Origin: a virus
Taxonomy: Duplodnaviria; Heunggongvirae; Uroviricota; Caudoviricetes
DNA length: 64,000 nt
Strand: one strand, 5' to 3'
Virus record (IMG/VR): IMGVR_UViG_3300010429_001387
Location: 1-64,000 of that record
Shown here: positions 1,833 to 24,672 of the stretch, one piece after another
Numbering within the stretch: the stretch's first letter is position 1
How the letters are laid out: each line of letters opens with the position of its first letter
The notes under the pieces: model-generated
The model's database searches: none
Told to the model about the DNA's origin: nothing
Seen by the model: the letters and a program-made list of their open reading frames with translations, nothing else
Translations under genes and position numbers: made by a program

Positions 1833-2399
1833 TTATCTTAAATAGTCTCGTTTAACTGTTTGTTTGAGTTTTTCCTTCGGAACCAAATTATCACTACAAA
1901 AGAAAACTCCTTTTACTTCAAGAGGAGCTCCTTCAAGAGAAGTTAATCGATTCCCCATACATTTGAAATTACCATTTATTACTTTAGGAACTCCGATTAA
2001 CGAAGTTATTTTATTAAAAGAACAATTAAAATCTTTTCCGACTCTTTTAGGAGCATCATAAAGAGAAATCAATTCATTATTGTCACAATAAAAACTTCCG
2101 CGTACGTCGATTGGACATCCTTTTAATGAAGTCAGCTGATTGTAACTACAATCAAAATGTCCTTTTACTTCTTTAAATTTAACAGGAAGTTGAGTTAAAT
2201 GTAAATCGAATAAATCAACATCATATTTACATGAATATGTTCCATCATCATTTAAAATCCATTCTTGTTCTTTTACTAAACGTTCAATTCTATCTTTTAA
2301 TCGTTCGTCTCGTTCCGCTTTCGAGATCGGCTGGAATGCCGAGTCGAAGTCGGATTCTTCGAATACGTGAATTAGAGATTCATGGAGTTTAGAGAACAT
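1833..2399 (-). CDS. LRR-like tandem-repeat protein, paralog C (about 5 degenerate 22-aa repeats)
   Basis: N-terminal about 55 aa conserved with ORFs 3019..3519 and 4457..5020. Repeats follow the pattern 'F-C--N-LTSL-G-P--V-G-'. The C-terminus 'KQTVKRDYL' is conserved. Confidence 0.6.
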   Translation of the reverse strand: MFSKLHESLIHVFEESDFDSAFQPISKAERDERLKDRIERLVKEQEWILNDDGTYSCKYDVDLFDLHLTQLPVKFKEVKGHFDCSYNQLTSLKGCPIDVRGSFYCDNNELISLYDAPKRVGKDFNCSFNKITSLIGVPKVINGNFKCMGNRLTSLEGAPLEVKGVFFCSDNLVPKEKLKQTVKRDYLR

Positions 2400-3022
2400 T
2401 ACCCAATTCCTAATTCTCTCTTAATATCTGCATAATCTATTGAATTATCTTCTTCATCAAAACACTCTTTTGTTCCAGCAGGACCAACTGCAACAGCATA
2501 CTTTTTATTGTGGGTTTTATCAATCACAACATAAATTGTGATTCCTCCTTCCCAGTATTGATCCCACCAAGTCGCTGTTTTTCCAGAAATACACCATTTA
2601 GTATTAGCTCCATAAAAACATGACGCTTTGTGTGATTTTAATTTCACTATAAGGTATTTGTTTGTTTCTTGGATAATTTCAGAACCTTCTTCTTTGGCTT
2701 GCTTTTTAACTTCACCTTTAGTTTTTACTTTTGACCTATTTTGGATCAAATCATCCAATGATTCTAAATCGTAGGTATAGATATTAGATTCGTCTTTTTG
2801 TACAATTTTACGATTTACAAGGGGATCAAAAGCTTTTACAACATCAATAATATGACGTTGTCTAGTAGGATTTTGTAGATATTGTTTAAGCATCCACTGC
2901 AGATATTTCTTGCTTTTCGAAGGATCTTCTTTAAGAAATAATTCAAAAGCCTCTGCAGATACTTTATTAGTGTCGACATATTGTTGGTGAAGTTCTTTTG
3001 TGCCTTCTTCAAGATATTTCAT
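2399..3022 (-). CDS. Hypothetical protein of a 'TxWC'-motif family (paralog of 20117..20872)
   Basis: Shares 'KASCFYGANTKWCISG...TWWD...YVVIDK' with 'KASQWFCRGTRWCLGS...TYWE...YVLILK' in the other ORF. Its start and stop overlap the neighbouring genes. Confidence 0.55.
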   Translation of the reverse strand: MKYLEEGTKELHQQYVDTNKVSAEAFELFLKEDPSKSKKYLQWMLKQYLQNPTRQRHIIDVVKAFDPLVNRKIVQKDESNIYTYDLESLDDLIQNRSKVKTKGEVKKQAKEEGSEIIQETNKYLIVKLKSHKASCFYGANTKWCISGKTATWWDQYWEGGITIYVVIDKTHNKKYAVAVGPAGTKECFDEEDNSIDYADIKRELGIG

Positions 3023-3519
3023 AGATAGTCTCGTTTAACTGTTTGTTTTAACTGTTGTTCAGGGACAGGATTACGATAACAATCAAAATATCCTCCAACA
3101 TGTGCAGGTGCACCCTGGAGTGATGTTAGTCTGTTTCCACGACAAAAAAAATTTCCTCTAACATGTGCAGGTGCACCTTGGAGTGATGTTAGGTTGTTTT
3201 GGGAACAACTAAAATCTCCACCAACATGTGCAGGTGCACCTTGGAGAGATGTTAATTGGTTATGGAAACAATAAAAATGTCCTCTAACTTCCTTAAACGT
3301 AACAGGAAGTTTAGTTAAATGTAAATCGAAGAGATATACAGTCCCTTCACAAGAATAACTCCCGTCGGGATTTTGTATCCAGGATTGTTCTTTTGCTAAA
3401 CGTTCTATTTTTTGTTTGAGACGTTCGTCATATTCTTCGGGCGAAACCGGCTGGAATGCCGAATCGAAGTCGGATTCTTCAAATATTTGTTGAAGATTAT
3501 CGAAAAGTTGATAATACAT
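3019..3519 (-). CDS. LRR-like tandem-repeat protein, paralog B (3 near-identical 22-aa repeats)
   Basis: Three 66-bp tandem DNA repeats encode 'NxLTSLQGAPAHVxGxFxC'. The N- and C-termini are conserved with the paralogs. Confidence 0.6.
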   Translation of the reverse strand: MYYQLFDNLQQIFEESDFDSAFQPVSPEEYDERLKQKIERLAKEQSWIQNPDGSYSCEGTVYLFDLHLTKLPVTFKEVRGHFYCFHNQLTSLQGAPAHVGGDFSCSQNNLTSLQGAPAHVRGNFFCRGNRLTSLQGAPAHVGGYFDCYRNPVPEQQLKQTVKRDYL

Positions 3520-4436
3520 TACTTAATCCCCAGCATACTTTTTAGTTTAACAACATCTTCAGTTTCAATTTCATCATCTTGCATTAACTCGTTTAAATCT
3601 CCAATAATTTTCAAATACTGATATTTTGCTAAAAACTTAAAAGCTGCATTAGCATCATTCCAATCTTTTGCCAGCTTAACATCCTTTAACAACTCATCGG
3701 GAGATTTTTCTGGCATCTCAATGCTGCGAGCATCAATCCAAATTTTGCGTAAATCATAAAGTTTTTGAATATCAGCTTCAATTTCTTGTAATTTCGCTTT
3801 AGCTAATTGTAAGAATTTCTGTCGTTGGGCTTTTGACATGTTTACCATTGCTTTATGCAACGTATCAAAATCAATCGTATCTCGTTTTAATTCGCCTAAC
3901 AACATATCTGCTTCTTTAAAGGAATCTTGCATTCCCTTTAAAATCCCAGAATAATCTTGCATGGGGTCATAATCCGGTGGAACAATTCTTGGACCTTTAA
4001 TCCAAGCATTTGTTAATAGATCATAAACTCCTTCAGATCGATAGTCCTGCAAAGGATTAAACTGTATGGATATTTCGATCGGATGCTGACCAATAAAAGC
4101 ATCTAAGTCGGTTTGATGTTTTTCAAACCACTTACGAACTTCTTTAGCATCTTTTTCCGTCCATGGGGTTTTTGGAATTATATGCACATCAATATCTGTA
4201 TCTTCTGTATATTGATTTGTTGTAATTGACCCCACTATGTGAATTTGGTCTGCAAGCTCCTGAATATTAACAGTCGGATGTTGTTGCATTACTTTGTATA
4301 TCTTAGCTGCAACAGTATCTCGGAGCTTGTAGATACCATTTGGTTGTTTATCCCAAACCTGCAAATCCAATCCGGCTCGAGGATAATCGAGAAGTGATTC
4401 TTGGATTAGTTGGATTTTATTAAAAAGGTTTTGCAA
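3519..4436 (-). CDS. Pol-beta-superfamily nucleotidyltransferase
   Basis: 'VGSITTNQYTEDTDIDVHII' matches the hG[GS]x9-13Dh[DE]h NTase signature. An alpha-helical C-terminal half follows. The stop codon is shared with the downstream paralog. Confidence 0.6.
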   Translation of the reverse strand: MQNLFNKIQLIQESLLDYPRAGLDLQVWDKQPNGIYKLRDTVAAKIYKVMQQHPTVNIQELADQIHIVGSITTNQYTEDTDIDVHIIPKTPWTEKDAKEVRKWFEKHQTDLDAFIGQHPIEISIQFNPLQDYRSEGVYDLLTNAWIKGPRIVPPDYDPMQDYSGILKGMQDSFKEADMLLGELKRDTIDFDTLHKAMVNMSKAQRQKFLQLAKAKLQEIEADIQKLYDLRKIWIDARSIEMPEKSPDELLKDVKLAKDWNDANAAFKFLAKYQYLKIIGDLNELMQDDEIETEDVVKLKSMLGIK

Positions 4437-4456
4437 GGAATATTCTCAACTTTTAA

Positions 4457-5020
4457 TTATAAATAGTCTCGTTTAACTGTTTGTTTTAACTGTTGTTCAG
4501 GGACAGGATTACGATAACAATCAAAATATCCTCCAACATGTGCAGGTGCACCTTGGAGAGATGTTAGGTTGTTGTGAGAACAAGAAAAACTGTCTCCAAC
4601 ATGTGCAGGTGCACCCTGGAGAGATGTTAGGTTGTTGTGAGAACAATAAAAAGTTCCGCTTACAAATTGCGGTGCTCCCTCAAGAGAGGTTAATTTATTA
4701 GCATTACAATAAAAACTTCCTCCAACATGTGCTGGAGCACCTTGGAGGGATGTTAGGTTGTTGTGAGAACAATCAAAAGATCCTTTTATTTCTTTAAATT
4801 TTACAGGAAGTTGTGGTAAATTTAAACGATAGAGATTTACATCTCCATTACAGGAAAAAGTCCCATCAGGATTTTGTATCCACTTTTGTTCTTTCTTTAA
4901 ACGTTCAATTGTCTGTTTAATACGTTCTTGATGTTCCTCTTTCGAGATCGGCTGGAATGCCGAATCGAAATCATCTTCCTCGTAGATGTGGATTAAGTTT
5001 TCGAATAATTGATAATACAT
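4457..5020 (-). CDS. LRR-like tandem-repeat protein, paralog A (5 repeats)
   Basis: Five 66-bp tandem repeats encode 'NNLTSLQGAPAHVGGSFxC'. It shares the N-terminus 'MYYQLFENL...DFDSAFQP' and the C-terminus 'VPEQQLKQTVKRDYL'. Confidence 0.6.
   Translation of the reverse strand: MYYQLFENLIHIYEEDDFDSAFQPISKEEHQERIKQTIERLKKEQKWIQNPDGTFSCNGDVNLYRLNLPQLPVKFKEIKGSFDCSHNNLTSLQGAPAHVGGSFYCNANKLTSLEGAPQFVSGTFYCSHNNLTSLQGAPAHVGDSFSCSHNNLTSLQGAPAHVGGYFDCYRNPVPEQQLKQTVKRDYL
4520..4790. repeat. Tandem 66-bp coding repeats (5 copies). Related arrays lie at about 3100-3260 (3 copies) and, degenerate, at about 1900-2200
   Basis: Repeated 'catgtgcaggtgcaccttggagagatgttaggttgttgtgagaaca...' units are visible directly in the sequence. 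Confidence 0.8.
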
Positions 5021-5883
5021 TATTTCATGATCTTTAACAGGACTTTAGGCTTATCAGTTGTAATGAATTCAAAAATAACAGCGTCCTTAACTTCTTTAGT
5101 TTCAGTATGCCAATACCCTGCTTTTTGAAGTCCTTCCGCAACAAGATTAGCTATATCTTCGGGATGATCAATCGTAACTTCTTCATTGATGGATTCTTTG
5201 ATAAGTGAAATGGCTTTAGGTACTAATACCATTTTAAGATACACCATCTTAACATCTTCATCAGGATCAAGTTTAGAAGGATCGACAAAATCTTCCAATG
5301 AACTAAGAGCATCAATCATTTCATCATCTGTGGGCCATTCATTAGGAATCTTACCTGATTCAACTGCATCTCGAACAGCTTTGTTATCGTCTGGAGTAAG
5401 TTCTTCCATCTCACCCACTAGCTCAAGAACACCTTCAGTTAATGTTTTAATTACTTTCTCTTCATTGTCATCTTTGTTAGGGACTTTACCTTCTTTAACA
5501 ACCTTCTCGACTAATTCAGAAGAACAAAATGTACATTTACTTTCATTACTCCGAAATGTCTTAAAACAGGCATTACAAAGATAAAGATCAGACTTCTTAT
5601 TTTCTTTAGCCGCAGCTTTAGGCTTGGGATTTTGTGTATCTTTATCCGGAACTTCTTTCCAAGTCTTGTCATTTTTGAGCTTCGGCTTTGCTTTAGGACC
5701 ATTTAACTCCTGGTCAGAATAGTCTTCCATACCAATTTCTTCAGGAGTATTTTCGGGTTTTTTATCAGCAGGAGTCTGTTGTGGAACTTCAATAAGCTCG
5801 ATCTTTGTTTCTTCAATATCTAATCCAGCTTTCTTAAAAGCGTCATCCTCTCGCATTATATTAAGCAATCCCGTGAATTCCAT
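5020..5883 (-). CDS. Acidic protein with a zinc-ribbon and the 'EGKVPNKDDNEEKVIKTL' motif
   Basis: Contains 'CNACFKTFRSNESKCTFCSS' (CxxC...CxxC). It carries the same 16-aa motif, on a near-identical 47-bp DNA segment, as the giant ORF at 16361..20101. Confidence 0.55.
   Translation of the reverse strand: MEFTGLLNIMREDDAFKKAGLDIEETKIELIEVPQQTPADKKPENTPEEIGMEDYSDQELNGPKAKPKLKNDKTWKEVPDKDTQNPKPKAAAKENKKSDLYLCNACFKTFRSNESKCTFCSSELVEKVVKEGKVPNKDDNEEKVIKTLTEGVLELVGEMEELTPDDNKAVRDAVESGKIPNEWPTDDEMIDALSSLEDFVDPSKLDPDEDVKMVYLKMVLVPKAISLIKESINEEVTIDHPEDIANLVAEGLQKAGYWHTETKEVKDAVIFEFITTDKPKVLLKIMK
5447..5493. repeat. Dispersed 47-bp near-identical segment. Other copies are at 18513..18559 and 19815..19861
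   Basis: 'ttaattactttctcttcattgtcatctttgttagggactttaccttc' occurs three times in two different genes, with one mismatch in the third copy. Confidence 0.85.
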
Positions 5884-7199: not shown

Positions 7200-10100
7200 T
7201 TAGGTTCCTTTTTGCCAAACAGTTATAGGTTCCATTCGACCAGCATAACAATTTTTCTTTGGATATTTACCTTCATATTCCGAACTAACATTTAAACTGA
7301 TCTTTTTTATCCAAGGTTGAATATGAGATAAAATTTCGTCTTTATGTTGTTCCCATGCAATTTTAGCAGCTTCTGATCGTTTTCCAATTGGAGCTTTAAT
7401 TTTCCACATACCTAAATGACTAACATGTCCAATTTCTTTCGGCCACATTTCTTTAGGAAAATATTCCTTTGATACATACACAACATATGTTGCTAATTTC
7501 TCTTCTTGAAGAGATTCATGGAATTGTGCTGCTAAACTTGGAGCATGAACTTCTTCTCCTCTGAGATACGCTGACAAATCAGATGATGATCGAAGAGGTA
7601 TAGAATCCCCTGTTCTATCAATCCACAAACTTGTTGAATCATGTAATTTTGCTATTTCCTGCAATGCTATGATCTGTTGTTGAGTTGGTTTTTGATTAAA
7701 ATCTAAATGCAATTCACCTTTATCAATATCTGAACTTACGCGGATCATCCCTGTATTTTTAGCTACACCATACCCATATGTATGAGGTAATAATATGTCG
7801 AAATGAGCACATTTAACCCATAGTATGGTACCATCATTAAGAATCCACAATTTTACAACGTGTTCACCAGGAAAAGTCGATTTTGTCATCAATTGTTTTT
7901 GAGTTGCCGGAGGAAACTTAGCTTTAAACCCTTGCTGCAGTTCTGGTAATTCGTCAGATTCCTGGATGGATTCATTTGCAGCCTTTTGACATTCCTTTTG
8001 ATATTTTTGACGAACCAATACAGTCCATGTCCAAGGCACAGGTTCAATTAATTCATAAGCTGTTTGGTAATCTGTATCAGACCATTTGTATCCTTTAGCA
8101 AGTTTTTTTACTTCAGGAAAAATCATTTCTATTTCTATTCGTTTTGGTTTAAATCCCTCTTCTTTTAAAATGTTTTTAAGTTGAATCATTTGCTTTGTAG
8201 TTGGTTCTTCATATAGATTTAAAACCAAATCAGTTTCACCATATGTTCGAAATTGTAATGCGGTTTTTTCAAAGTATTTACGATGAACTTCACCTGTACT
8301 TAATATTTCTGATCTACCATCTGAAAACACAACCCCTGCAGTTTCAAGTAATTGTTTTTTTGATTCATGGAATTGTGCTGCTAAACTTCGCACATTTCGA
8401 CCCATTGCTAAAATACTTCTTAATTCTTCTGGCCAATTATCATCTATTGGTTCAATAGATCCTTCCATATATGGGGGATTCAATCTTTGAACAATCATAC
8501 ATTGAATTGGTTCATGCCAACCATTTATTAATTTATTAACAGCAATAACTTGCTCTTTTGTTAAAATACCTCGAGTCCGAACAACAATAGTAGCTTTATT
8601 ATCGTATACCCAAGCTGGGTATATGCGATATTCTAAAGCTTGTAGTTCCAGAAAACTAGCATCATCATCTACATAGTCAGCATGTTCTTTTCTTGGGTCA
8701 TTTTCAAAAATACGACCATCAGGAAATACAAAACCTGACTTACCAAGATCTCGACCTTTGGCCGTTTCCTCAGTAATGGATTCAACTTTCTTCTTACCAA
8801 GAGCAATTCCTGCCGCTTTGAATCTCGCAGCTGTTTCTTTAGCTTTCCGTTCTGCCTTTTCAATTACGTCATTATAGAACTTCTTGATCCAATTTGCCAT
8901 TGTACCTTTATAGAATGGCAAAACTTTCATTAGATTCTGAAGATGCTTGCAGTATGCTCCATACTTTTTCGGATTTCGAATATCAGGTGATCGATTTTCA
9001 GGCTCACCATACTTAGCTCTATACTTGTCTTGGGAAAGGATATAGTCTCCTCCCCAATAAAGTTGTGCTGGACAGGAGCATGATAATTCAATATCACCAT
9101 TACTAAACATCTTAGCAGCTAATTTCTTAAGATCCACTTTATTGAGTTTCTTATTCCAATTTCTCCGATCCGCAACAAGACGTTCCAAATCTGGACCAAC
9201 ATTCTTCCATTTAACAACTGCATCATACCAAAGATCATCTTCAGTTGCTGAATGAATTCGAAACTCCCATTTATCCTTTTCCATATTATGCAACCGTATT
9301 CCCCCCTTGGCTGCAACTCCTGGAACTTTCTTAGGATTAGAATAGAAATCTGGGAATAGTCGAGTTATGGATTGTTGTTTCTTTTTAAGCTGAGAAAGAT
9401 TAGCTTCTTGTATTTCAGATTCATATGCTGGTTGGTTCAGAAATTCTGGTCCATCTTCAAGAGCCATTTTAAGCCGATTTGTATCAGTTACATCCACTGT
9501 TGCATAACCACCCTGGACCAAACTCAAATCTATAGATACACTATATAGTTTGTATTTATTAATCAATGTCATCACTGATTTTATCTGCTTAGGATTCAAA
9601 GTCCCACCAGTGTCAAGGGATATAGATTCATTTGGCACGATTCGTCCACGGATACCACCTGATCTTAAAAACAATCGTTGCAATTCATATGCCTCATCCT
9701 CTTGAGAAGTAAAACGCACAGCCTTTAACTTTTTCCAATCCTTGCCCGCAATCGTCGCAGCATGCCAAGCTGGCACAACAACTACGGATCCATCATTAAG
9801 TATCAGAAACTTAAGAAATTGATCTTCACCAGCACCCGTCCAAAGACTATTGGGTATGTCAAAAGATATTTGTTCACGTCCCTTAATCTCAGCCTGTAGA
9901 GGAGTCAAGGCCATTGGATTAGTACGGATCTTTGTGGCAACAGCTTCATCAACAGATTCATGAAACTGTGCTGCTAAGGATTTTTGTTTTACTTTTCCAG
10001 TTAAAATAGCAGGCAACTCTTTAGAAGATTTAATATTAAATGTTGTGCCAATATGTTCTAATACTACGGTTTTTGTATTATGCAAATCACATAATTTTTG

Positions 10101-10463
10101 CAACCATTTAATCTGTTCAATTGTAGGTTGTTTTTCAAAATCAATATACATCGTTTTATTTTCGGTTGAAGCTATTCGAATTGCACCAGAGACAATCAGT
10201 TCGTCAATATCAGAACCAGCGTCATATGCTGTTGAATAATGGATATCATCTACAAATATTGGTGTTCCATCATTTAACAGCCAAAATTTTACTAAATAGC
10301 TTTCAGTAGTAGCATGAGTAAAAAGCTCTGATTTCTTTGCAGGTCCAAAATGCTTTACTAAATTCTGTTGAACTTTAGGCAAAGCAGTTTCATTAACAAG
10401 AGAAACTTTCTTCTTGTCTTCTTTGAACAAATCTTTCGCATCATGAAAAATGCTATCAAACAT
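7200..10463 (-). CDS. Large protein (1087 aa) with a triplicated internal domain
   Basis: Three copies each of 'SLAAQFHES' and 'W(L/I)LNDG(T/S)' spaced about 280 aa apart. The matching DNA repeat 'ttcatggaattgtgctgctaaac' occurs near 7520, 8355 and 9960. Confidence 0.6.
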   Translation of the reverse strand: MFDSIFHDAKDLFKEDKKKVSLVNETALPKVQQNLVKHFGPAKKSELFTHATTESYLVKFWLLNDGTPIFVDDIHYSTAYDAGSDIDELIVSGAIRIASTENKTMYIDFEKQPTIEQIKWLQKLCDLHNTKTVVLEHIGTTFNIKSSKELPAILTGKVKQKSLAAQFHESVDEAVATKIRTNPMALTPLQAEIKGREQISFDIPNSLWTGAGEDQFLKFLILNDGSVVVVPAWHAATIAGKDWKKLKAVRFTSQEDEAYELQRLFLRSGGIRGRIVPNESISLDTGGTLNPKQIKSVMTLINKYKLYSVSIDLSLVQGGYATVDVTDTNRLKMALEDGPEFLNQPAYESEIQEANLSQLKKKQQSITRLFPDFYSNPKKVPGVAAKGGIRLHNMEKDKWEFRIHSATEDDLWYDAVVKWKNVGPDLERLVADRRNWNKKLNKVDLKKLAAKMFSNGDIELSCSCPAQLYWGGDYILSQDKYRAKYGEPENRSPDIRNPKKYGAYCKHLQNLMKVLPFYKGTMANWIKKFYNDVIEKAERKAKETAARFKAAGIALGKKKVESITEETAKGRDLGKSGFVFPDGRIFENDPRKEHADYVDDDASFLELQALEYRIYPAWVYDNKATIVVRTRGILTKEQVIAVNKLINGWHEPIQCMIVQRLNPPYMEGSIEPIDDNWPEELRSILAMGRNVRSLAAQFHESKKQLLETAGVVFSDGRSEILSTGEVHRKYFEKTALQFRTYGETDLVLNLYEEPTTKQMIQLKNILKEEGFKPKRIEIEMIFPEVKKLAKGYKWSDTDYQTAYELIEPVPWTWTVLVRQKYQKECQKAANESIQESDELPELQQGFKAKFPPATQKQLMTKSTFPGEHVVKLWILNDGTILWVKCAHFDILLPHTYGYGVAKNTGMIRVSSDIDKGELHLDFNQKPTQQQIIALQEIAKLHDSTSLWIDRTGDSIPLRSSSDLSAYLRGEEVHAPSLAAQFHESLQEEKLATYVVYVSKEYFPKEMWPKEIGHVSHLGMWKIKAPIGKRSEAAKIAWEQHKDEILSHIQPWIKKISLNVSSEYEGKYPKKNCYAGRMEPITVWQKGT

Positions 10464-12834: not shown

Positions 12835-14340
12835 TTACGATCCTAACACATACCCACTTGCCAGGTTTTGAATCGCACCAGCACAGAACAGCCCAGCGTT
12901 GATCGTCTTGAAGGCTGCAGACGACATGAAGCCTTTCTGAGAGATCAAATCACTGGTAGTCAGTGTTGGCGTTGCGAACAGCGGAATATATGGACAGTAA
13001 ATGAAACCTGCATGCATATAGTCCGGTCCACGGAAACCTAACGTGTAGTTATTGGTCGATTTGAACGGATTCTGGATAACAGTTACCTGATTGTCCAGGA
13101 CACCAATCTTAATCGGACCAGTCGGAATTTGGACCGTAGGAGCAGGAGCAAAATGATCCTTGCCCAGCTGCTTGATAACTCGAGCAACATTGTTTCCACA
13201 AACCATGAAAGTCGCGATACCTCTCTTGGTCTTATCGAAGATGTTGTTCGAGCCTTCTTGGATACGATCCAGGAATTCCAGTTTCTTGAACACCCAAGCT
13301 TCACCCTGCGAAGGACGAGCATCCCAAGTCGTTGGAGCAGTTGCAGCATCACTTGATGCCGCAGCAGTATCAATATAGTCCAATCCACGTTGATCAATTG
13401 TGAACTTGATTTCCCCACCCAAATACTTCACAAGTTCACTCTCGAGATCAATACCGTGAGCCTTCTTAAGATCGATCTCTGCACCCAGCGACCATTTCGC
13501 TCTCAGAGGGAAATCCTGGGCAGTAACAGCCGACTGTGAAACCTCGATGTTCGCCTCGGGCACACCATCCAGATTGCCGTATGCATCAGCCGGAAGATCA
13601 TACTGATAGTCATAACTAATCAGGATTGTTGATCCAGAGGTTGATCCGGAAACTGTAAAGGCGTACACACCGGCCGCAGTAATGCTCCCTGTACCAGTAA
13701 TGTAATCACCAGTGATGTTACCATCCTCATCTGACGTACCCAGTTCAGTGTAAGTTGAGCTAACCTTCTGCTCAATCACAACATTTTCCAGGTTAATCAG
13801 GCCAGGAGCAAACGAGCAAGTTCCAGACTTCGAACCATCGCCAGCACCAGACACCGTTTCACGCTCAACGTGAGCAATCGCATACCGACGCTCAGATTGA
13901 CTTTCCGGATGTCCTGTCGTTGAAGACAACATGGTTCCACCTGAACTAACTTCACCCTTGCTGGTACCATACTTAACATCCAGATAGAACACAGCCGCAA
14001 TTCTACGATCAATTGCCTGAACGATAGAAACTTCATTCAGCACAAGTGTCGGCAGCAATGCAGCAATGACCGGCAGCTGAATACCCAAGAAGCTGATATT
14101 GTCTTCAGTTGTAGTCTCGAACAGACGACTGTTCTGCTTCACGCCACATTCGAGGATGGCATTGTACAGACACTGAGCAACGTTTCGCTTCTCGTGCAGG
14201 GTAATAGGACGATTGTGCTCTTCGAGCATGTACTTCTCAACAGATGCCAGAAGGGGTTTAATCTTGGGATGTTCCATGAGGGAATCCCGAGCAGCATCCA
14301 TCTTCCGCATTTCATTTTGAATCATTTCTTGCAGCTTCAT
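12835..14340 (-). CDS. Major capsid protein (candidate)
   Basis: 501-aa ORF directly downstream of the protease/scaffold gene, so size and order fit a T4/SPO1-like head module. No defining motif was found, so this is a positional call. Confidence 0.45.
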   Translation of the reverse strand: MKLQEMIQNEMRKMDAARDSLMEHPKIKPLLASVEKYMLEEHNRPITLHEKRNVAQCLYNAILECGVKQNSRLFETTTEDNISFLGIQLPVIAALLPTLVLNEVSIVQAIDRRIAAVFYLDVKYGTSKGEVSSGGTMLSSTTGHPESQSERRYAIAHVERETVSGAGDGSKSGTCSFAPGLINLENVVIEQKVSSTYTELGTSDEDGNITGDYITGTGSITAAGVYAFTVSGSTSGSTILISYDYQYDLPADAYGNLDGVPEANIEVSQSAVTAQDFPLRAKWSLGAEIDLKKAHGIDLESELVKYLGGEIKFTIDQRGLDYIDTAAASSDAATAPTTWDARPSQGEAWVFKKLEFLDRIQEGSNNIFDKTKRGIATFMVCGNNVARVIKQLGKDHFAPAPTVQIPTGPIKIGVLDNQVTVIQNPFKSTNNYTLGFRGPDYMHAGFIYCPYIPLFATPTLTTSDLISQKGFMSSAAFKTINAGLFCAGAIQNLASGYVLGS

Positions 14341-14356
14341 CTTTATAATCTCCTTA

Positions 14357-16249
14357 TTATGTCCAAGACTTTAGAAATCCTTTTACTAATTTGTCAGACG
14401 CAGATTGTTCTGCATCGACTATCACGGTTTCTTGGATTTTGACCTCCTTGATCTTCTCCGGATGAAGTGCACCCCGACGAGCAACACCAATAATCTTCTC
14501 CAAGAGACTATCTACATCATGAAGTGTTTCACAATCTTCGAGAAGTGCTCGAGTATTGGTATCAACCTTCAATCGCAGATGAGCCAAACGAGAATCGAAG
14601 TACTCAGCAAGTACCTCGTTACGTCCTGTTAATTTAGCATTGTTTGCAGTTTCAACTAATTCAGCTTGATGTGATTTATGGTATTCATCAAGCTTTGATT
14701 CAGCAATTGTTTTAGCTTCTTGCAACTGTTTAGTTGTCGAAGCCGCATCAGCTGCTTTTGTTTCTAGCATTGTTCGAAGACCATTAACTTCGGCTTCAGC
14801 AGTTTCTTGAATCTTCTTAATCCTATCTTGCAACATTCGAACTTGTAATTCAGAATGTTCAGATTCCTCTAATTCCTCGATTAACTTTTCACATTCTGCA
14901 CGAGCAGTTGCTTCTGCTATTTTAAGATTAGTTAATTGTGATTTGATATCAGAGGATTCATTTTCTTTAGTCTTTACTTCACCACGATGTGACTTACCTG
15001 ACTTATCATAGCAATAGCGAACATATTCATCTTTCTTTAATCCATGTTCCTTGTCACCTGATACTGTTCGAACTCGACCACCTTGGTCAACACATTTGTT
15101 GAATTCTTCATCTTCTTGAACTTCTTCGGACTCGGCAACTGAGGACTTTAATTTTTTCAAAGCATCCAATGCTTCATTTTCTGTATCAAACCAACCAGCT
15201 ACAATTTTATCGCGATTCAAATTTATAACAGCAAATTTCTGTGCTTTTTGCTGTGAAACAATGTCATATTGATCTGATGGGTAACCGGAATAATCTTCTT
15301 CCTCTTTTAGCTTTGATTCAGATTCTTCAACTGACTCCATGGGAAGTTCTTTTTCTTCCTCTTCCTCTGGAGTTTCCAATCCCATTTCGCCAGGAGCTAA
15401 TTCTGGTTCTTCGAGAGGCATTTCTTCTTCAGGAGCAACCATATCACCAGCAAGAACCCCACCTTCTTCTCCCGGAGGAACTTCCGGAGTTGGACTAACA
15501 CTTACATTAATCCCGGCACTATTCTGGATTGTAGTATTTCCAGCTAAGTCACCCGAAACTTGAATATTAGTTTGCTGACCTTTATCTTCAATATTAACAG
15601 AAATATTAGATTCATCAACCTTTAAGGATTCCAGCAGCTTAACTGCAAATGCTCTGTCTCCAGCCTTCATATGTTTGTTTTCTAACTCTCTCTGAAGAGT
15701 TTGTGCAACATTCATGCGAACATCAAGAGGTTCCACACCATATGTCGAAGGATCTGCTGTAAAATCAGTTGTTTTATATTGATATGATTCTGGAACAACT
15801 CGTTGGACCTTAACACCTTCACCTAACTCAACCTCTTCCAGATCACCTTCTGCTCTTGTAGACATTCCAACTTTGGATCCTGCTCTTAATAGACAATCAA
15901 CAATTCGACCAGTTGGAGTATCAACTATATCTACAGTTTGATAAACTTTGTTGGATGCTTCATCTATCCACATCTTATGAATAATGTGGGATGTTTCTCG
16001 GAGATCTGATTGGGTCTCCATCGGATGTTCAGCATGCCCAAATAGACAGCGATCCGCAAGCTTCTGTTGGAGTTCAGAATCTGAAAGAACTTTTTCCCAA
16101 ACTTCCTTATCATACACTCGACCATTTGCATTCTTTTCACCTAAATTACAAATGCAATAGGTTGCCCGAGACAATACACTTTCAGGAAGGTTATTTCGAT
16201 CAGATTCGACTAATTGAACATTAGCTTTTAAGCTTTCTATTAGCTTCAT
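14357..16249 (-). CDS. Prohead protease/scaffolding fusion protein (candidate)
   Basis: A globular N-terminal domain is followed by an acidic, coiled-coil-rich C-terminal half ('EEEEKELPMESVEESESKLKEEED', long heptad regions). It sits immediately upstream of the capsid candidate. Confidence 0.4.
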   Translation of the reverse strand: MKLIESLKANVQLVESDRNNLPESVLSRATYCICNLGEKNANGRVYDKEVWEKVLSDSELQQKLADRCLFGHAEHPMETQSDLRETSHIIHKMWIDEASNKVYQTVDIVDTPTGRIVDCLLRAGSKVGMSTRAEGDLEEVELGEGVKVQRVVPESYQYKTTDFTADPSTYGVEPLDVRMNVAQTLQRELENKHMKAGDRAFAVKLLESLKVDESNISVNIEDKGQQTNIQVSGDLAGNTTIQNSAGINVSVSPTPEVPPGEEGGVLAGDMVAPEEEMPLEEPELAPGEMGLETPEEEEEKELPMESVEESESKLKEEEDYSGYPSDQYDIVSQQKAQKFAVINLNRDKIVAGWFDTENEALDALKKLKSSVAESEEVQEDEEFNKCVDQGGRVRTVSGDKEHGLKKDEYVRYCYDKSGKSHRGEVKTKENESSDIKSQLTNLKIAEATARAECEKLIEELEESEHSELQVRMLQDRIKKIQETAEAEVNGLRTMLETKAADAASTTKQLQEAKTIAESKLDEYHKSHQAELVETANNAKLTGRNEVLAEYFDSRLAHLRLKVDTNTRALLEDCETLHDVDSLLEKIIGVARRGALHPEKIKEVKIQETVIVDAEQSASDKLVKGFLKSWT

Positions 16250-16360: not shown

Positions 16361-19300
16361 TTATGATATGACTATAAAACGGTGCATATCGGTAGCGAAC
16401 CACTGTCTGTTTGAATTAGGAATTTCTTTTGACTCAATCAGAATACGATCCTTTTCAACCTTTCGGACCACACCTTCTTCAATCACTGGATAGAAATTAC
16501 GAGACAGCATGACTTGAACTGTATCATTCTCTTTAATTTCTACATCAACTGGCTTGGTCTTGTTCAATCCTAAGATTAAATTAGCAATTTGAACAGATTC
16601 GTCAGATTCTTCAACAACAGGAGCAGTTACAACTTCTTCAACTTTGCTCTCATCAACCTTAGATTCCTTTGCAGCCTTAGAAATCTTAATTGATGGATAC
16701 TTAGCATGCACTGCGGAAGCAACTTTCTTTTTCATAGTATCTAAACTCCCTGTATACCATTTAGGTGCTGAACTATATTGATTTACACGAGCTAATGCAT
16801 TGCGAGCTTGTCCAATGTTGTTAATTGGAAAATGATCTTTGTCATCTTTTACTGACTTAGATCCAGCTGGGAATACAACATTGCCACGATTGCGAACTTC
16901 TGCTTTAGGATCCTTTTTAGCTTCTTCAACAGTTTCTGATTCTTTCATTTTACATTCATCTTCTTCGTATTCAGCTTCCTCATTATCAATATTAGCGTAA
17001 TATTCCTCTTCATCCTCACCCTCTTCCTCATCTCCATCTCGTGTATTAACTACAACACGTCGACCATCTGTATTAACCGAAAATTCACCGTTTTCGGCTT
17101 CAAACCGTAAATTGTTTTGTACATCAAAAACTCGACCCATACTTTCGGCTTCTTTTCGATCAACTTTCCACATGGATTCAGGAACAATTCCTAAAACACC
17201 TGCATCAACCCCATATCGAATACCATCTGATCCTTTATACTCCCCATCACCATACGCTGTGCCTGCAACTGCAAATTTACCTTCAGGAGAATCATACACT
17301 CCATCATTAAAATCACATTTATCTCCCCAAAAACCATGATACATCTCATCTTTCATAACATAACAAATATCCCCGAAGTAATACACACCAGGCTCAAATG
17401 TTGTTGCAACAACTTCTTCAGGCTTATAGGCTTCTTTGAGATGTGTTTTGTGATTACCAGCTTTTCGATTCTCTTTCATTTCATTGATTTTAGATTCCCG
17501 CATCAATGAAACTCCCTTAGGCAACAGAGCATTAACCGCTTTAATATCCTTAACTCCCTTTAATTCAAAACCAGCATCAGTTTGTCGAGCACTTTTAACT
17601 AATCTTCGATTAACAATTTGCTGGACAGCTGCAGCAATAGCTTCTACATCTCCAGCTTTTGCATCTGGAGAATCTGGAATGTGATAATTGGCTTCTTCAA
17701 CAGTTTCTTCTTTTACACATTCCTCAGTTGGCTCGTCAATTTCTTCTTCATGGGTACGATCCCCAGGTTCATCACAAGCACCCTTTTCCATACGATCCAG
17801 GTGTGTGTAATATTGAGGATCTTCTGCTAGATGATCCATGGCAATCTCTTTAGCAAGTTCAGGTGTGTTAGTATGTTCTAACTCAACCTTGATTCCCATC
17901 TGCAATTGTTCGGGATCAAATTCATCTTCGGCTCGATTGTCTGCTAATCCACCTGAGAGAATGTCTTTGTGATCTTCCTTTACACATTCCTCATCCTCTG
18001 ATTTACGCATACCTGGCAATCCAGCTTTTCGCCTGGCTGAAGCTTTATATGGACCAGTACCATCTCGTTTGCCTGGAGACTCATAACCTTCGTTCTTCTT
18101 GGACTCACCAATCTTAACAATCTTAGTAACCTTTTCCACACCTTTCTTACGAGCCATCATCTGCTTAGCATCATCTTCATCAAATGCTTCGACTCGCATT
18201 TTCTTTTCGACACCATCCACAACAAATGTAACTTCATACACGTGTTTGATGACGCCATAGTCTTCTTCTTGTATATTAGATTCTGCTAATTCAATCTCGT
18301 CATCTGCTAAATTTAATTCACGTCCATCATCAAATTTAACAAAATAAACACCTTCATCTTCATTATCTTTTCGAATTGAGGTTGCTATCCCAACCTTTCC
18401 AACATAATTTTTTGCCCAACGAGGCAATGGTTCATCATGCCCATGCATTTTCTCACCAGTAAACCTAACTCGTTTTCCTCGATAATCAATCCCTTCTTCT
18501 TCCATGAGTGTCTTAATTACTTTCTCTTCATTGTCATCTTTGTTAGGGACTTTACCTTCCATTGTTTCTTCCGACATACCAGCAGCTTCTTGAGCTTTCT
18601 TCAAGAGCTCTTCCTCTTCAGGCTCCAGCATACCTTTGCTTTTCATCTTCATAAGATGTGTTACTAATTGTGTGGCGAAGTATTTATTACCCTCTTCTTG
18701 AGATGCTGGTGCAAAATCTTCACCAAACTCATTGACTTTGGATTCATTAAAATCAGACATATCTAAATCATTTCGAACCTCATAATGAATTAATTTTTGG
18801 ATGCCTGGGATTACATTGTTTCTTATCTTTTGTTTAACCTCAGATAATTTTTCTTCTACAACATATTCAGTTGACCCTGCACCTGTCGACATGAAATGAA
18901 ATCCTAATTTTTCTCTCATTATCTTATCGAGAGTTGGGTCTTCATTGAATGCCTCTTCATCAACTGAAATTAAAACAACTGTTTCTTGGACTTTGGATTC
19001 ATTCTTAGATTCCACCGTCCGCTGTGCAACCAATTCAACATAATCTTGTTCATCAAGATGGGATATGGTTTCCAATGCTAATTCTTTAATACCCTCATCA
19101 GTCATGCGACCTTCATTTGCACCAAATAGATGTGCAAAGTCTGCAGTGAATCGATATTCTTTGTCATTGATTCGAAGCTTAATCCTCTTTTCTGTTTCGT
19201 CTAAAAGTTCAATATCAAATTCGTTTCCCTTTTCATCCTTGATGAGAGTTTCAGACAATTTCTTTTTCATATCTCCATCCTTAGATTCCATTGGTTTGGT

Positions 19301-20101
19301 TTTTGGCTTAGCAGGTTCAGTTGGCTCAGGAGCAGGAAGTTCTTCTTCCTCTTCTTCACCACCCATAAACTCTTCAGGCTCTTCCTCTTCAGGTTCAATT
19401 TCTTCTTCCTCTTCATCTTCAGGAAGGATGTATTGTAACACAACAGATCTTTCTAATTGTGCAATATCAACTTCTTGGATGACCTTGTCGATAAATGTTT
19501 CAACATTTGTTGGATCCAGATCATGTTCCTTAGCTGAATAAACCGGATCTCCTTCTTGATTAACTAATTGGAGATCGGTGACTTCAGCTTCTTCAGATCT
19601 GTCAACAACAAGATAATAATGAACATCATCTGTATGTCCAATGTAGATCTTATCGAAATCGATTTCAGCTGGTTCTTCTTCCTCTTCAGGCTCATCGGTT
19701 AGCTCAGGATTAGGCTGTTCCTCTTCCCCTGGCGTGATCTCTTTGTCTGCTTTGGGTTGGAAGGCTTTGTCGAATTCTTTGTCCTTTGGATCCTCAGGAG
19801 CTTCCATTAAAGTCTTAATTACTTTCTCTTCATTGTCATCTTTGTTAGGGACTTTGCCTTCAGCTTTAACTTTAGCTAAGTTCCTACGGAGAAGTTCAGC
19901 TTCTACTTCTCTCTTGTCATGCTCATATGTTTCGTATCGTTTACCTGTAGGATCTTTATATCCTTCATCCATTTCTTTGTAGAAAGCAATTAGTTCTTGA
20001 TCTCCCATTTCGTAAATGTGACAAACACATTCGTGCATGGGAATATCTCGCATGAAATTATCTTTGTTGTCTACAAATTCGCGAATCCAATCACGCTTCA
20101 T
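16361..20101 (-). CDS. Giant acidic protein (1246 aa); candidate internal head or ejected protein
   Basis: Poly-Glu tracts and two copies of 'EGKVPNKDDNEEKVIKTLME'. A C-terminal 'GIKVELEHT...AMDHLAEDPQYY' domain is present. It lies upstream of the head genes. Confidence 0.55.
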   Translation of the reverse strand: MKRDWIREFVDNKDNFMRDIPMHECVCHIYEMGDQELIAFYKEMDEGYKDPTGKRYETYEHDKREVEAELLRRNLAKVKAEGKVPNKDDNEEKVIKTLMEAPEDPKDKEFDKAFQPKADKEITPGEEEQPNPELTDEPEEEEEPAEIDFDKIYIGHTDDVHYYLVVDRSEEAEVTDLQLVNQEGDPVYSAKEHDLDPTNVETFIDKVIQEVDIAQLERSVVLQYILPEDEEEEEIEPEEEEPEEFMGGEEEEEELPAPEPTEPAKPKTKPMESKDGDMKKKLSETLIKDEKGNEFDIELLDETEKRIKLRINDKEYRFTADFAHLFGANEGRMTDEGIKELALETISHLDEQDYVELVAQRTVESKNESKVQETVVLISVDEEAFNEDPTLDKIMREKLGFHFMSTGAGSTEYVVEEKLSEVKQKIRNNVIPGIQKLIHYEVRNDLDMSDFNESKVNEFGEDFAPASQEEGNKYFATQLVTHLMKMKSKGMLEPEEEELLKKAQEAAGMSEETMEGKVPNKDDNEEKVIKTLMEEEGIDYRGKRVRFTGEKMHGHDEPLPRWAKNYVGKVGIATSIRKDNEDEGVYFVKFDDGRELNLADDEIELAESNIQEEDYGVIKHVYEVTFVVDGVEKKMRVEAFDEDDAKQMMARKKGVEKVTKIVKIGESKKNEGYESPGKRDGTGPYKASARRKAGLPGMRKSEDEECVKEDHKDILSGGLADNRAEDEFDPEQLQMGIKVELEHTNTPELAKEIAMDHLAEDPQYYTHLDRMEKGACDEPGDRTHEEEIDEPTEECVKEETVEEANYHIPDSPDAKAGDVEAIAAAVQQIVNRRLVKSARQTDAGFELKGVKDIKAVNALLPKGVSLMRESKINEMKENRKAGNHKTHLKEAYKPEEVVATTFEPGVYYFGDICYVMKDEMYHGFWGDKCDFNDGVYDSPEGKFAVAGTAYGDGEYKGSDGIRYGVDAGVLGIVPESMWKVDRKEAESMGRVFDVQNNLRFEAENGEFSVNTDGRRVVVNTRDGDEEEGEDEEEYYANIDNEEAEYEEDECKMKESETVEEAKKDPKAEVRNRGNVVFPAGSKSVKDDKDHFPINNIGQARNALARVNQYSSAPKWYTGSLDTMKKKVASAVHAKYPSIKISKAAKESKVDESKVEEVVTAPVVEESDESVQIANLILGLNKTKPVDVEIKENDTVQVMLSRNFYPVIEEGVVRKVEKDRILIESKEIPNSNRQWFATDMHRFIVIS

Positions 20102-22560: not shown

Positions 22561-24672
22561 TTAATTGTTTATAAGATTATCTCCTGTTGCAATTCCATCA
22601 TTAAATATGTTGGGAGATTTATCCTTTTTGTTTTGAGCAAATGTTCCTGTATATTCTGTTCCATTTGCTCCATACCCTATACCATCAACAACATTGGATG
22701 CTCCAGGAAGAACATCTGTTCCAGAGAATTCAATTCCACCAGCACCATAGCTAGTCCCAGTTCTTACTTTTCCAACTACAGGAAGTTTTAACATTCCTAT
22801 CTTTTCGGCGAATTGATAATCCACACCATCCCGAACATCAGCTTCATCGGGATAATCACCATCTTTTGTCCAGGCAAAGTAGACATCACCACTGGCTCTC
22901 TTGGCTGTTAGACGAACCCACACAAGTTTAGGAATTGAACCAGTATTCTTATAAGATACGACAACTTCTTGCCACCCTGTTTCGGTTCCACTTACAATAT
23001 CAGAATCCAATGAAGTGTAACTACTTGATACAATAGGATCGCTTCCCTGGTCAATAATCTCCAATCTTGGAGGATAAGTCGAATGGTCATCTGCAATCTT
23101 AATATACCCACGAACTCGCAAAGTCTCCCCAGGCATTATAGTAACTGGTTCCTGATAGAAACCATGAAATGTCGCCGACTCGCAAGTTAATTTTAATCCC
23201 TGTGTATATCCTGTAGGAACAGTAATGGTTTCACTCTCCGTAATTCCACCCTTAGAAAGTGTTTTGATAGCAGAAGCCGTACCATCCACTCCATGCCAGA
23301 GAACATAACCGTTCGCAAGAGTCCATTCGTTGTTGTAATCAACGAACTCGGTAGCCCCCAAGAGAGATACATCGGTCAATGTGACAAAGGGACACCGGCG
23401 AAATGCTGTTGTATCATTGCTTGTGGTGTTCGAGCAGGTGACGGTGCAGTTGTTGAACCCATTGTTATTCCCGCTGCTTGTGCCTCCGCTCCAGGTGACG
23501 GTGCACGTATAGAATCCATTGCTATTCCCGCTACTTGTGCCTCCGCTCCAGGTGACGGTGCACGTATGGAATCCATTGCTATTCCCGCTACTTGTGCCGC
23601 CAGACCAGATGACTGTGCAAAGATAAAACCCGGTACTATTCCCACTGCCTGTACCTCCAGTCCATGTGACGGAGCAGAGATTGAATGTGTTGGTATTTCC
23701 GGCACTTGTGCCATTAGACCATATAACACCACAGGTATGGAATACACTGTTGTTCCCGCTACTTGTACCACCAGACCAAGTAACAGTGGAGTTATGAAAC
23801 CCTCTTGACCAACCAGAGGCCCATCCGCTCGTCGGACCAACGCCATAATACCCACCATCTACAGTCAATCCCGTACAGGCATCAAACCCAAATCCCTGTC
23901 CTGCTGTAGCACAGTACATCCAAGCATCGACTCTGGCATTAACAGCATTAGCAATACACTTTTGAGACGATCCAGACCCACCTATGATCTTAACGTTTCG
24001 TGTGGCAAGAGCAATTATACAAGGATAGTTCCCCGCTGTTTTTGCGGCAGTCAATCCAGCCGTAACAGTGATAGTGGAAGCAGCAATTCCCCCAGCAGCA
24101 ATAACACGAGTTTCATGTTCCTGTGCCTTTTGTAAATCACAAATTGAAACCGTATCACCAGCAGCCCAGATGTCCCCAGTGACATTTGTGTCTACGCTCA
24201 ATTCAGTCTGACCTATAGCTTCGTCAGCGGACAATCGAATAATAGGATTAGCTGGTTCGGCACAGAGAATCTTAATATCGAGATACGTTCCGTCGATATA
24301 ACCTGTCGTCATACACTCAATAGTCACTTTACTGGCAAACGGATGTCGAGTATCTCCAGTGGCCCAGGCTCCATCGGAATTGCACAACAATCTGCCTTTG
24401 GTGGCAGCATTTGTCCCATTAATAGTAGTTCCTGTTTTGATCTTAAGATGCTTAGTCGTAGCTCCAACATTGAAGAATAACATCCCTGGTGTGGTTGCAT
24501 GGCTGGTAATAGTCAATCCTGCAATACCATTAGCAAAACCCGATTGATCTACATCGAATTCCACCGAATGACCTGCAGCAATGACAACTGTGTCATTATC
24601 AGCAGGGACACCTGTGTCCCAAGTACCGGCAACAGACCACTTACCTGATCCTATAGAAGTTATCGTAGCCAT
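22561..24672 (-). CDS. Tail fibre/tailspike protein with a tandem repeat array
   Basis: 703 aa and Gly/Thr/Ser-rich. It has at least six tandem 22-aa repeats 'TWSGGTSSGNSNGF(Y/H)TCTV', encoded by 66-bp DNA repeats at about 23390-23800. Confidence 0.55.
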   Translation of the reverse strand: MATITSIGSGKWSVAGTWDTGVPADNDTVVIAAGHSVEFDVDQSGFANGIAGLTITSHATTPGMLFFNVGATTKHLKIKTGTTINGTNAATKGRLLCNSDGAWATGDTRHPFASKVTIECMTTGYIDGTYLDIKILCAEPANPIIRLSADEAIGQTELSVDTNVTGDIWAAGDTVSICDLQKAQEHETRVIAAGGIAASTITVTAGLTAAKTAGNYPCIIALATRNVKIIGGSGSSQKCIANAVNARVDAWMYCATAGQGFGFDACTGLTVDGGYYGVGPTSGWASGWSRGFHNSTVTWSGGTSSGNNSVFHTCGVIWSNGTSAGNTNTFNLCSVTWTGGTGSGNSTGFYLCTVIWSGGTSSGNSNGFHTCTVTWSGGTSSGNSNGFYTCTVTWSGGTSSGNNNGFNNCTVTCSNTTSNDTTAFRRCPFVTLTDVSLLGATEFVDYNNEWTLANGYVLWHGVDGTASAIKTLSKGGITESETITVPTGYTQGLKLTCESATFHGFYQEPVTIMPGETLRVRGYIKIADDHSTYPPRLEIIDQGSDPIVSSSYTSLDSDIVSGTETGWQEVVVSYKNTGSIPKLVWVRLTAKRASGDVYFAWTKDGDYPDEADVRDGVDYQFAEKIGMLKLPVVGKVRTGTSYGAGGIEFSGTDVLPGASNVVDGIGYGANGTEYTGTFAQNKKDKSPNIFNDGIATGDNLINN
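23390..23800. repeat. Tandem repeats of about 66 bp inside the tail fibre gene
   Basis: Repeated 'ccgctccaggtgacggtgcacgtatagaatccattgctattcccgctacttgtgcctc' units. They create mirror-image spurious ORFs on both strands. Confidence 0.75.

Follow-up and report, generated by a model that had tools for sequence, protein, structure and literature searches.

A capsid targeting sequence (CTS) was reportedly described for the T4 internal proteins IPI, IPII, IPIII, and Alt by Mullaney and Black in 1996. The T4 CTS has 10 residues and is bipartite, with its targeting residues on the N-terminal side and its processing residues (L/I-x-E) on the C-terminal side; it is identical in IPII and IPIII and is common to otherwise diverse internal proteins (PMC9026906, PMC3012670). 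The T4 prohead protease gp21 cuts after L/I-x-E (PMC9026906). Here we describe a 20-residue peptide module that occurs three times in 64,000 nucleotides of a caudoviricete genome (IMG/VR record IMGVR_UViG_3300010429_001387, positions 1 to 64,000; this whole stretch is called the window below). The copies lie in two acidic proteins, one of 287 amino acids (aa) and one of 1246 aa. The reading that we favor, with a probability of roughly 55%, is that the module acts as a portable tag in internal-head polyproteins, serving both for targeting to the prohead and for cleavage, in the manner of the T4 CTS. A sequence-only reading of the window had proposed that the repeated peptide could be a maturation-cleavage or capsid-targeting signal or a shared interaction epitope, and every part of that interpretation that could be tested in silico held up.

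The module resembles the T4 CTS in several respects. It is a short, bipartite peptide found in otherwise unrelated proteins encoded near head genes. Its last residues form a Φ-x-E site of the type cut by gp21-family (S77) proteases, one of which the genome encodes. There are near-identical copies per genome, as in IPII and IPIII, and the cargo set is highly variable and shuffled. Unlike the T4 CTS, which occupies the N-terminal 10-20 residues and is discarded, the module is 20-23 residues long and internal, is often present in two or three copies in one protein, and would be left on the upstream fragment by cleavage. When compared by eye with the T4 CTS, MKTYQEFIAE, the module shares only Glu at P1 and a hydrophobic residue at P3. 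It probably works like the T4 CTS, and we do not file it in the T4 CTS family.

Three other systems are close enough to be compared. The giant phages phiKZ, 201phi2-1, and SPN3US have processed ejection or inner-body proteins with long propeptides and S/A/G-x-E cleavage, and the SPN3US paralogues gp53 and gp54 have an identical 15-residue N terminus that was proposed to be CTS-like (PMC5694885, PMC9026906). The window is similar in that a large phage has a diverged gp21 homologue and many head-internal proteins that are cut after Glu at several sites per protein, which here is predicted. However, the propeptides of the giant phages are N-terminal and at least 100 residues long with S, A, or G at P3, whereas here P3 is L, I, V, or M and a portable 20-mer lies between polyprotein modules. 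The polyvalent proteins of phages and conjugative elements (Iyer et al. 2017, PMC5512222) are also very large, rapidly shuffled multidomain proteins among virion genes that are predicted to be packaged and delivered with DNA, and processing is proposed. Their hallmark domains (MuF, zincin-like MPTase, ART, ParB-like, PBECR, and others) were not detected by Pfam in our proteins, where only DUF5661 and DMP19-like domains were found. Unlike the polyvalent proteins with their embedded autopeptidase, the proteins described here are proposed to be processed by the prohead protease at defined linker motifs. Encapsulin cargo-loading peptides, too, are short conserved peptides in disordered regions that send unrelated cargo inside an HK97-fold shell. 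They differ from the module in that they are found at the C terminus (or the N terminus), stay uncleaved, and attach to the shell protein itself, and their consensus is unrelated to that of the module.

The evidence begins with the repeat itself. The 47-nucleotide (nt) stretches at 5447-5493 and 18513-18559 are identical, and the stretch at 19815-19861 differs from them by one mismatch (A to G). The copies share an exact 41-nt core (5447-5487, 18513-18553, and 19815-19855). With up to 3 mismatches allowed, the 47-nt stretch has three matches in the window, compared with 0.00 expected from 100 shuffles. In a repeat search, where the copies form family D4, the similarity reaches about 60 nt at 92-93% identity and ends abruptly. 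All three copies are in direct orientation on the minus strand and in frame with their open reading frames (ORFs), and they encode the 20-residue peptide EGKVPNKDDNEEKVIKTL(M/T)E. One copy (5434-5493) corresponds to aa 131-150 of the 287-aa protein (EGKVPNKDDNEEKVIKTLTE), a linker just ahead of its folded C-terminal domain. Copies 1 (19802-19861) and 2 (18500-18559) of the 1246-aa protein correspond to aa 81-100 and aa 515-534 (both EGKVPNKDDNEEKVIKTLME). Coordinates, shuffles, and in-frame peptides thus confirm the near-identical 47-bp segment that the sequence-only reading had reported three times in two genes. Its assignment of the (M/T)E end to this segment did not stand, because the 47 nt encode only EGKVPNKDDNEEKVI(K); a further 13 nt, down to 5434, 18500, and 19802, are needed to reach the TL(M/T)E end. 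Over 60 nt the window copies have 4-5 differences, and the 7 variable sites are all in the outer 19 nt, with none in the central 41; the exact core spans 13 synonymous positions. Our scan of the window's own genome comprised the 64 kb plus about 11 kb, and we found no further copies in the remaining ~44 kb of the window or in the ~11 kb fetched beyond the window ends. There were 0 matches to the exact 41-mer in IMG/VR and 0 matches in JGI metagenome contigs to a degenerate DNA pattern coding for EGKVPNKDDNEEKVIK, which means that the JGI collection does not hold the source contig.

At the peptide level, the module is found across a clade. Using the capsid protein, we found 33 related IMG/VR loci on contigs of up to 215 kb and sampled them within ±10 kb of the capsid gene. 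Gene order is conserved among these relatives, and two slots hold variable proteins. Slot i is occupied by a variable large acidic protein upstream of the protease. Slot ii, which is flanked by a 161-aa and a 305-aa gene that are both conserved, is found downstream of the neck and capsid genes and holds the 287-aa protein in the window. The clade-wide module reads E-G-[KR]-[VILM]-P, then 9-12 variable, mostly acidic residues, then [IV]-x-x-[LMI]-x-E, for a total of 20-23 residues. Among 909 coding-strand ORFs, the pentapeptide EG[KR]ΦP occurs 30 times compared with 1.4 in shuffles, and the full motif occurs 26 times compared with 0.085, an enrichment of ~300-fold. The tail follows the pentapeptide in 26 of 30 cases, against a background of 5%.

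A profile search of 1.84 billion representative proteins returned only 25 clusters at E ≤ 1e-3, most of them with two or three copies per protein. The clusters with contigs that were long enough to reveal neighboring genes (P0017, P0020, and P0014) are encoded just upstream of Peptidase_S77 genes, and in two of the three a Gp23 gene is next. Our total is 71 instances, spread over 44 proteins from related uncultured large phages, and nearly all lie in mosaic acidic proteins encoded next to protease and capsid genes. The module is exactly 20 aa long in 53 of the 71. Leu occupies P3 in 66/71 and Ile or Val occupies P6 in 67/71, while P1 is Glu and P3 is Leu, Met, or Ile in all 71; the search pattern itself requires Glu at P1 and restricts P3 and P6. 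The consensus is EGKVP-x-D-x-D-x-EEKKIKKLTE, and conservation drops sharply at both ends. The profile also finds variants with a changed anchor, ESIIPDWSKDNEETQIKKL(I/V)E in L020 and NPANIDKPEEVIQTLAE in L023, each twice per protein. All window copies are internal, and in a few relatives the module is near the N terminus (aa 14 of P0017, aa 17 of P0005). It was not detected in outgroup loci, whose capsid proteins are ~32% identical. Within the clade it is conserved over genomes whose capsid proteins are only 40-66% identical. The sequence-only reading would have been in difficulty if related phages did not conserve the motif; we found it clade-wide, in several proteins per genome. A literature search returned nothing relevant on EGKVP, EGKLP, or EGKIP.

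The module has two conserved parts. The first is an N-terminal anchor, E-G-K/R-Φ-P; the second, which follows at an almost constant spacing, is an amphipathic end, [IV]-x-x-L-x-E, which would serve as a T4-type Φ-x-E site for the prohead protease. We propose that, before the shell closes, the module docks the whole multimodule protein to part of the prohead core (the protease or the scaffold fused to it). The S77 protease would then cut behind the terminal Glu and also at linker sites of the simpler ESKΦxE type. These cuts would free individual cargo modules inside the head, such as DUF5661 and DMP19-like DNA-mimic domains, for later ejection. Because the whole polyprotein would be recruited as a unit, the position of the tag would be free, which would account for its alternative sites in orthologues. 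Within this proposal, we regard cleavage after the terminal Glu as probable, and the targeting role of the anchor is offered more tentatively, at somewhat less than even odds.

The 1246-aa protein, an acidic mosaic and putative internal-head polyprotein with two motif copies and five ESKΦxE sites, is encoded at 16361-20101 on the minus strand. Directly downstream is the gene for a 630-aa prohead protease (14357-16249, minus), followed by the gene for a gp23-like major capsid protein (12835-14340, minus; Pfam Gp23, 9e-42). The large carrier had been placed in a head-gene neighborhood from the sequence alone, and these two genes bear that out. The 630-aa protein has an N-terminal S77/gp21-like part, an acidic linker, and a coiled-coil, scaffold-like C-terminal part; it matches Pfam Peptidase_S77 (PF03420) at 3.7e-10 and phrog_207 at 4.9e-28. 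Its sole PDB match is T4 gp21 (5JBL), in which Ala residues align with its His (GHAEHP) and Ser (GMSTR); we take these Ala residues to be mutated catalytic positions. PHROGs and Pfam were mostly uninformative on the neighboring genes, and a megablast search with the 1246-aa gene found nothing among 50,697 phage records. In three relatives (L005 10001-12046, L002 3856-5648, and L018 8777-10959), the capsid-gene match is 300-700 nt longer than needed and the ORF is split, which suggests an intron, an intein, or a homing-endonuclease insertion.

The 287-aa protein is encoded at 5020-5883 (minus) in the variable slot between the conserved 161-aa and 305-aa genes. It has a disordered N-terminal part, a CxxC...CxxC zinc ribbon (aa 103-120) that is kept in all but one of six relatives, the motif, and a folded C-terminal domain. 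Both carriers have a pI of 4.6 and a D+E content of 22-24%, so that the earlier description of a zinc-ribbon protein and a 1246-aa protein, both acidic, proved accurate. In an AlphaFold (AF2) model of the 287-aa protein built on seven sequences (mean pLDDT of 58.7), residues 122-149 have a pLDDT of <50, and the confident fold starts at about residue 151 (10-residue block means of 64-89), right past the terminal Glu of the motif. Directly adjoining this carrier are tandem paralogous small genes at 1833-2399, 3019-3519, and 4457-5020 (window 1833-5020, minus), which contain the repeat families D1 and D2 at 60-73% DNA identity and have weak LRR-like matches.

The relation between the module and Φ-x-E sites is clearest in orthologues of the 287-aa protein, where the module takes one or the other of two positions. 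The first, between the zinc ribbon and a conserved EGVLELVGE domain, is the one used in the window and in P0008. In L005 (P0009) and in P0010 this first site is without the module, which follows LVPKALSM instead. Where the first site lacks the module, a bare Φ-x-E is present (QIKE|G in P0009, KLCE|G in P0010, and SVNE|G in P0013), and the same is true of the second site (SLIKE|S and SMLE|G). Relative to P0009, P0010, and P0013, the window copy is an insertion. In the large protein of L005, the first copy aligns with EGKVNE|AGPTDD in P0002, in sequence that is 69-77% identical. The capsid protein has a predicted maturation site, RLFE75|TTT (E75 codon at 14116-14118), and E75 is invariant within [LIVMY]-x-E75|TT in 12/12 aligned genomes. 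This invariance makes a T4-like Φ-x-E specificity plausible for the protease of the clade. The earlier observation that the peptide end fits the (L/I)-x-E context of T4-type prohead proteases gains from the S77 protease gene and from the capsid site, with cleavage itself still a prediction.

A second linker motif, E-S-[KR]-[VILM]-x-E, is found clade-wide 60 times compared with a shuffle expectation of 5.1 (12-fold). It is concentrated in slot-i proteins, slot-ii proteins, and protease-scaffold fusions (L001, L005, L012, L025, and others). The 1246-aa protein has five ESK[VIK]xE sites, at 18983-19000, 18728-18745, 18089-18106, 17480-17497, and 16649-16666 (minus; overall 16649-19000), with P1 Glu at residues 373, 458, 671, 874, and 1151. 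A motif search found two more ESKΦxE sites in the 630-aa protease protein (15302-15319 and 14684-14701, minus). ESKΦxE is probably the ordinary prohead-protease cleavage site of the clade, and with such sites the carriers look like polyproteins.

The same evidence could be read as saying that the module is an extended, high-affinity protease substrate element only, in which EGKΦP binds an exosite and LxE fills the active site, giving early or ordered cutting without recruitment. The spacing from anchor to scissile Glu is nearly fixed (20 aa in 53/71), the module replaces a bare Φ-x-E at the same orthologue positions, and the middle is constrained within a genome (11 synonymous to 2 nonsynonymous codon differences in L003) as if one enzyme reads all copies. 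However, we know of no exosite in the S77/gp21 protease family, and the abundant ESKΦxE sites and the capsid-protein site lack the anchor. Proteases of the gp21 family have almost no determinants past P3 and P1 (PMC9026906). We consider this explanation unlikely, if still deserving of attention.

The carriers are mosaics. Slot-i proteins and slot-ii proteins freely swap homology blocks with each other and with protease proteins, in the latter within the C-terminal part. Homology between the 1246-aa protein and the large protein of L005 begins at motif copy 1, and downstream of motif copy 2 the modules differ between the two, which marks a mosaic breakpoint. The DUF5661 module of the 1246-aa protein (aa 729-773) is found in slot-ii proteins of L001, L004, and L018, and the domain that follows the motif in the 287-aa protein is found inside the large protein P0003. 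A module at aa ~350-430 of the protease protein (window ~15000-15200; Cys-containing, CVDQGGRVRTVSG...YCY) sits in the L005 and P0002 large proteins right after a motif copy. As judged from these shared blocks, modules move between the protease gene and the cargo genes. Since the protease protein must be inside the prohead, the modules that the carriers share with it support a head-internal location of the carriers.

What these proteins would carry is partly recognizable. DMP19-like modules (PF14300, a DNA-mimic family) are present in the motif-bearing polyproteins P0018 (aa 94-267) and P0031 (aa 573-669). The P0018 module has a motif copy on either side, suggesting a releasable antidefense cargo. 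In the 1246-aa protein, a phrog_20074 module (phrog_20074 match at aa 905-1033; homology at aa ~867-1020, window ~17042-17500) has stand-alone homologues in the early region of T4-like Acinetobacter phages and in Lak megaphages, all annotated as hypothetical, for example Acj9p028 of Acinetobacter phage Acj9 (L042 2489-2950). In a tblastn search of the carrier against phages, only the module at aa ~867-1020 matched, and no annotated virion homologue was found; Acj9p028 has no CTS-like N terminus. Recognizable cargo is sparse: Pfam detects DUF5661 alone in the window protein, and no more than DUF5661 or DMP19-like domains among the relatives. The cargo modules fit host-takeover or antidefense effectors that the clade may deliver pre-made.

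Such cargo also bears on an explanation in which the module is a short linear interaction motif whose partner is outside head assembly. The partner could be a host hub protein met after ejection, or it could lie within the carriers themselves, for example in their conserved C-terminal domain, and LxE would be part of an amphipathic binding helix. A sharply bounded motif of fixed length in disordered linkers is typical of a linear motif, its lineage-specific middle could track different hosts, and the cargo resembles host-takeover and antidefense proteins (the DMP19-like DNA mimic and the early-gene homologues in T4-like Acinetobacter phages). However, Glu at P1 and Leu, Met, or Ile at P3 match the specificity of the protease family and the bare Φ-x-E at the same orthologue sites. 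Moreover, the carriers are confined to two slots flanking the protease and capsid genes, and no copy is present in the other ~44 kb of the window or the ~11 kb beyond it. We regard this explanation as improbable.

We then compared copies within and between genomes. The median identity of the variable middle is 0.92 within genomes and 0.25 between them. Within-genome copies are identical or nearly so in DNA in L025 (0/63 differences), L038 (0/60), L005 (2-6/63), and L008 (5/63). The flanks of the copies are unrelated (12-22/48 nt identical) except in one L039 pair, which has 28/48 identical and also shares 24 nt upstream. A longer repeated domain that contains the module was ruled out by these unrelated flanks, with the L039 pair as the exception. 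Where copies have diverged, synonymous codon differences outnumber nonsynonymous ones: 11:2 in L003, 8:3 in L013, and 5:1, 4:1, and 7:2 in L040. The L003 copies differ at 15/60 nt with only 2 amino acid changes. Because diverged copies keep the peptide and differ mainly at synonymous sites, the selected object is the peptide, and we are confident of peptide-level selection on the module. Diverged copies in L003 and L013 are conserved even in the "variable" middle, which points to a lineage-specific constraint, as expected if one partner reads all copies. We propose that the middle drifts between genomes or coevolves with such a partner.

The near-identity of other copies very likely reflects recurrent gene conversion among within-genome copies that is confined to a homology island of ~60 nt. 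Short conversion tracts anchored inside this small island would explain why variable sites of the window copies are only at the outer edges. Of the recent duplication or gene conversion that had been suspected from the DNA identity, the copying therefore stands (L025, L038, L005, and L008), but the idea that the repeat is merely recent does not, because the module is old and under purifying selection. A bolder extension, which we offer as speculation and think quite unlikely, is that the module is a self-propagating, in-frame address-label cassette that spreads by short-patch gene conversion into existing Φ-x-E linker sites and whose genome-specific middle coevolves with a prohead-core receptor. 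If so, a private code per lineage would set which polyproteins, including captured antidefense modules, get loaded and cut, and sequence alone could allow cargo loading in the clade to be predicted and engineered.

These comparisons leave little room for the repeat as a neutral by-product, either a recently duplicated linker or a joint that recombination left behind as modules were shuffled. In favor of such an origin are the near-identity of the window copies in DNA and the extreme mosaicism of the carriers, whose homology blocks start or stop at the motif. However, the module is conserved across genomes with 40-66% capsid identity, diverged paralogous copies show a synonymous excess, and the enrichment is ~300-fold; a neutral origin is thus very improbable. 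A selected DNA or RNA unit (promoter, terminator, structured RNA, small RNA target, site-specific recombination site, or diversity-generating repeat) would suit the exact 41-nt identity including 13 synonymous positions and the direct, same-orientation repeats, but L003 keeps the peptide despite its 15/60 nt differences, and we find this explanation scarcely credible. Particular candidates of this kind were rejected on their own results. For structured RNA, the sense strand was less structured than shuffles (z of +0.6 to +1.7) and the antisense strand was unremarkable (overall z of -0.96 to +1.68). No promoter-like or terminator-like site overlaps any copy. Repeats of a diversity-generating retroelement, shufflon, or invertase were set aside because all three copies are direct, none is inverted, and the 7 variable sites are not adenine specific; the window was not searched for a reverse transcriptase or invertase gene.

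Several observations weigh against a prohead-targeting and cleavage tag. In sequence the module bears no resemblance to the T4 CTS, its position is internal instead of N-terminal, and a cut after its terminal Glu would leave the tag on the upstream fragment, whereas T4 discards it. Since the predicted cutting of the capsid protein and of the protease does not involve the module, the N-terminal anchor is not required for cleavage as such. The regular expression matches in only 14 of the 22 in-group loci sampled, and there are orthologues without the module (P0011-P0013, L001, and L002). Thus, the module cannot be the sole route into the head. Finally, the capsid protein of the closest cultured phage among the 50,697 phage records is only 28% identical.

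If the module is nonetheless a targeting and cleavage tag, it provides a sequence-readable rule for an uncultured clade of large phages, in which EGKΦP...LxE tags and ESKΦxE linkers would tell packed proteins and cut sites. Candidate ejected effectors, such as the DNA-mimic-like and DUF5661 modules, could be named without proteomics. The T4 idea of one tag for many cargos would have evolved here in another form, one that is internal, repeated, and portable. A 20-residue tag could also load foreign proteins into capsids, as the T4 CTS has. The module also shows, in a clean natural case, how unrelated genes can share a 60-nt coding island that evolves in concert.

Three further features of the window are recorded here. 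A 1087-aa basic protein (7200-10463, minus) contains the peptide SLAAQFHES three times (7513-7546, 8362-8395, and 9955-9988). Two of these copies are 91% identical in DNA, each copy follows a repeated domain, and the peptide was not found in related loci; relatives conserve only the central part of the protein (aa ~353-561), which has a CxC...CxH SWIM-like cluster. A 703-aa ORF without a family match (22561-24672, minus) has a 57-nt tandem repeat at 23378-23776 (TRF array at 23435-23676), with ~4-6 copies and 82% matches, that codes for a 19-residue repeat. About 9 kb upstream of the head module is a gene for a trypsin-like serine peptidase (29400-30221, minus; Trypsin_2, 6e-26), and in the relative L041 (1310-2711) the equivalent trypsin-like gene adjoins a gene matching PF25185 (Tad3).

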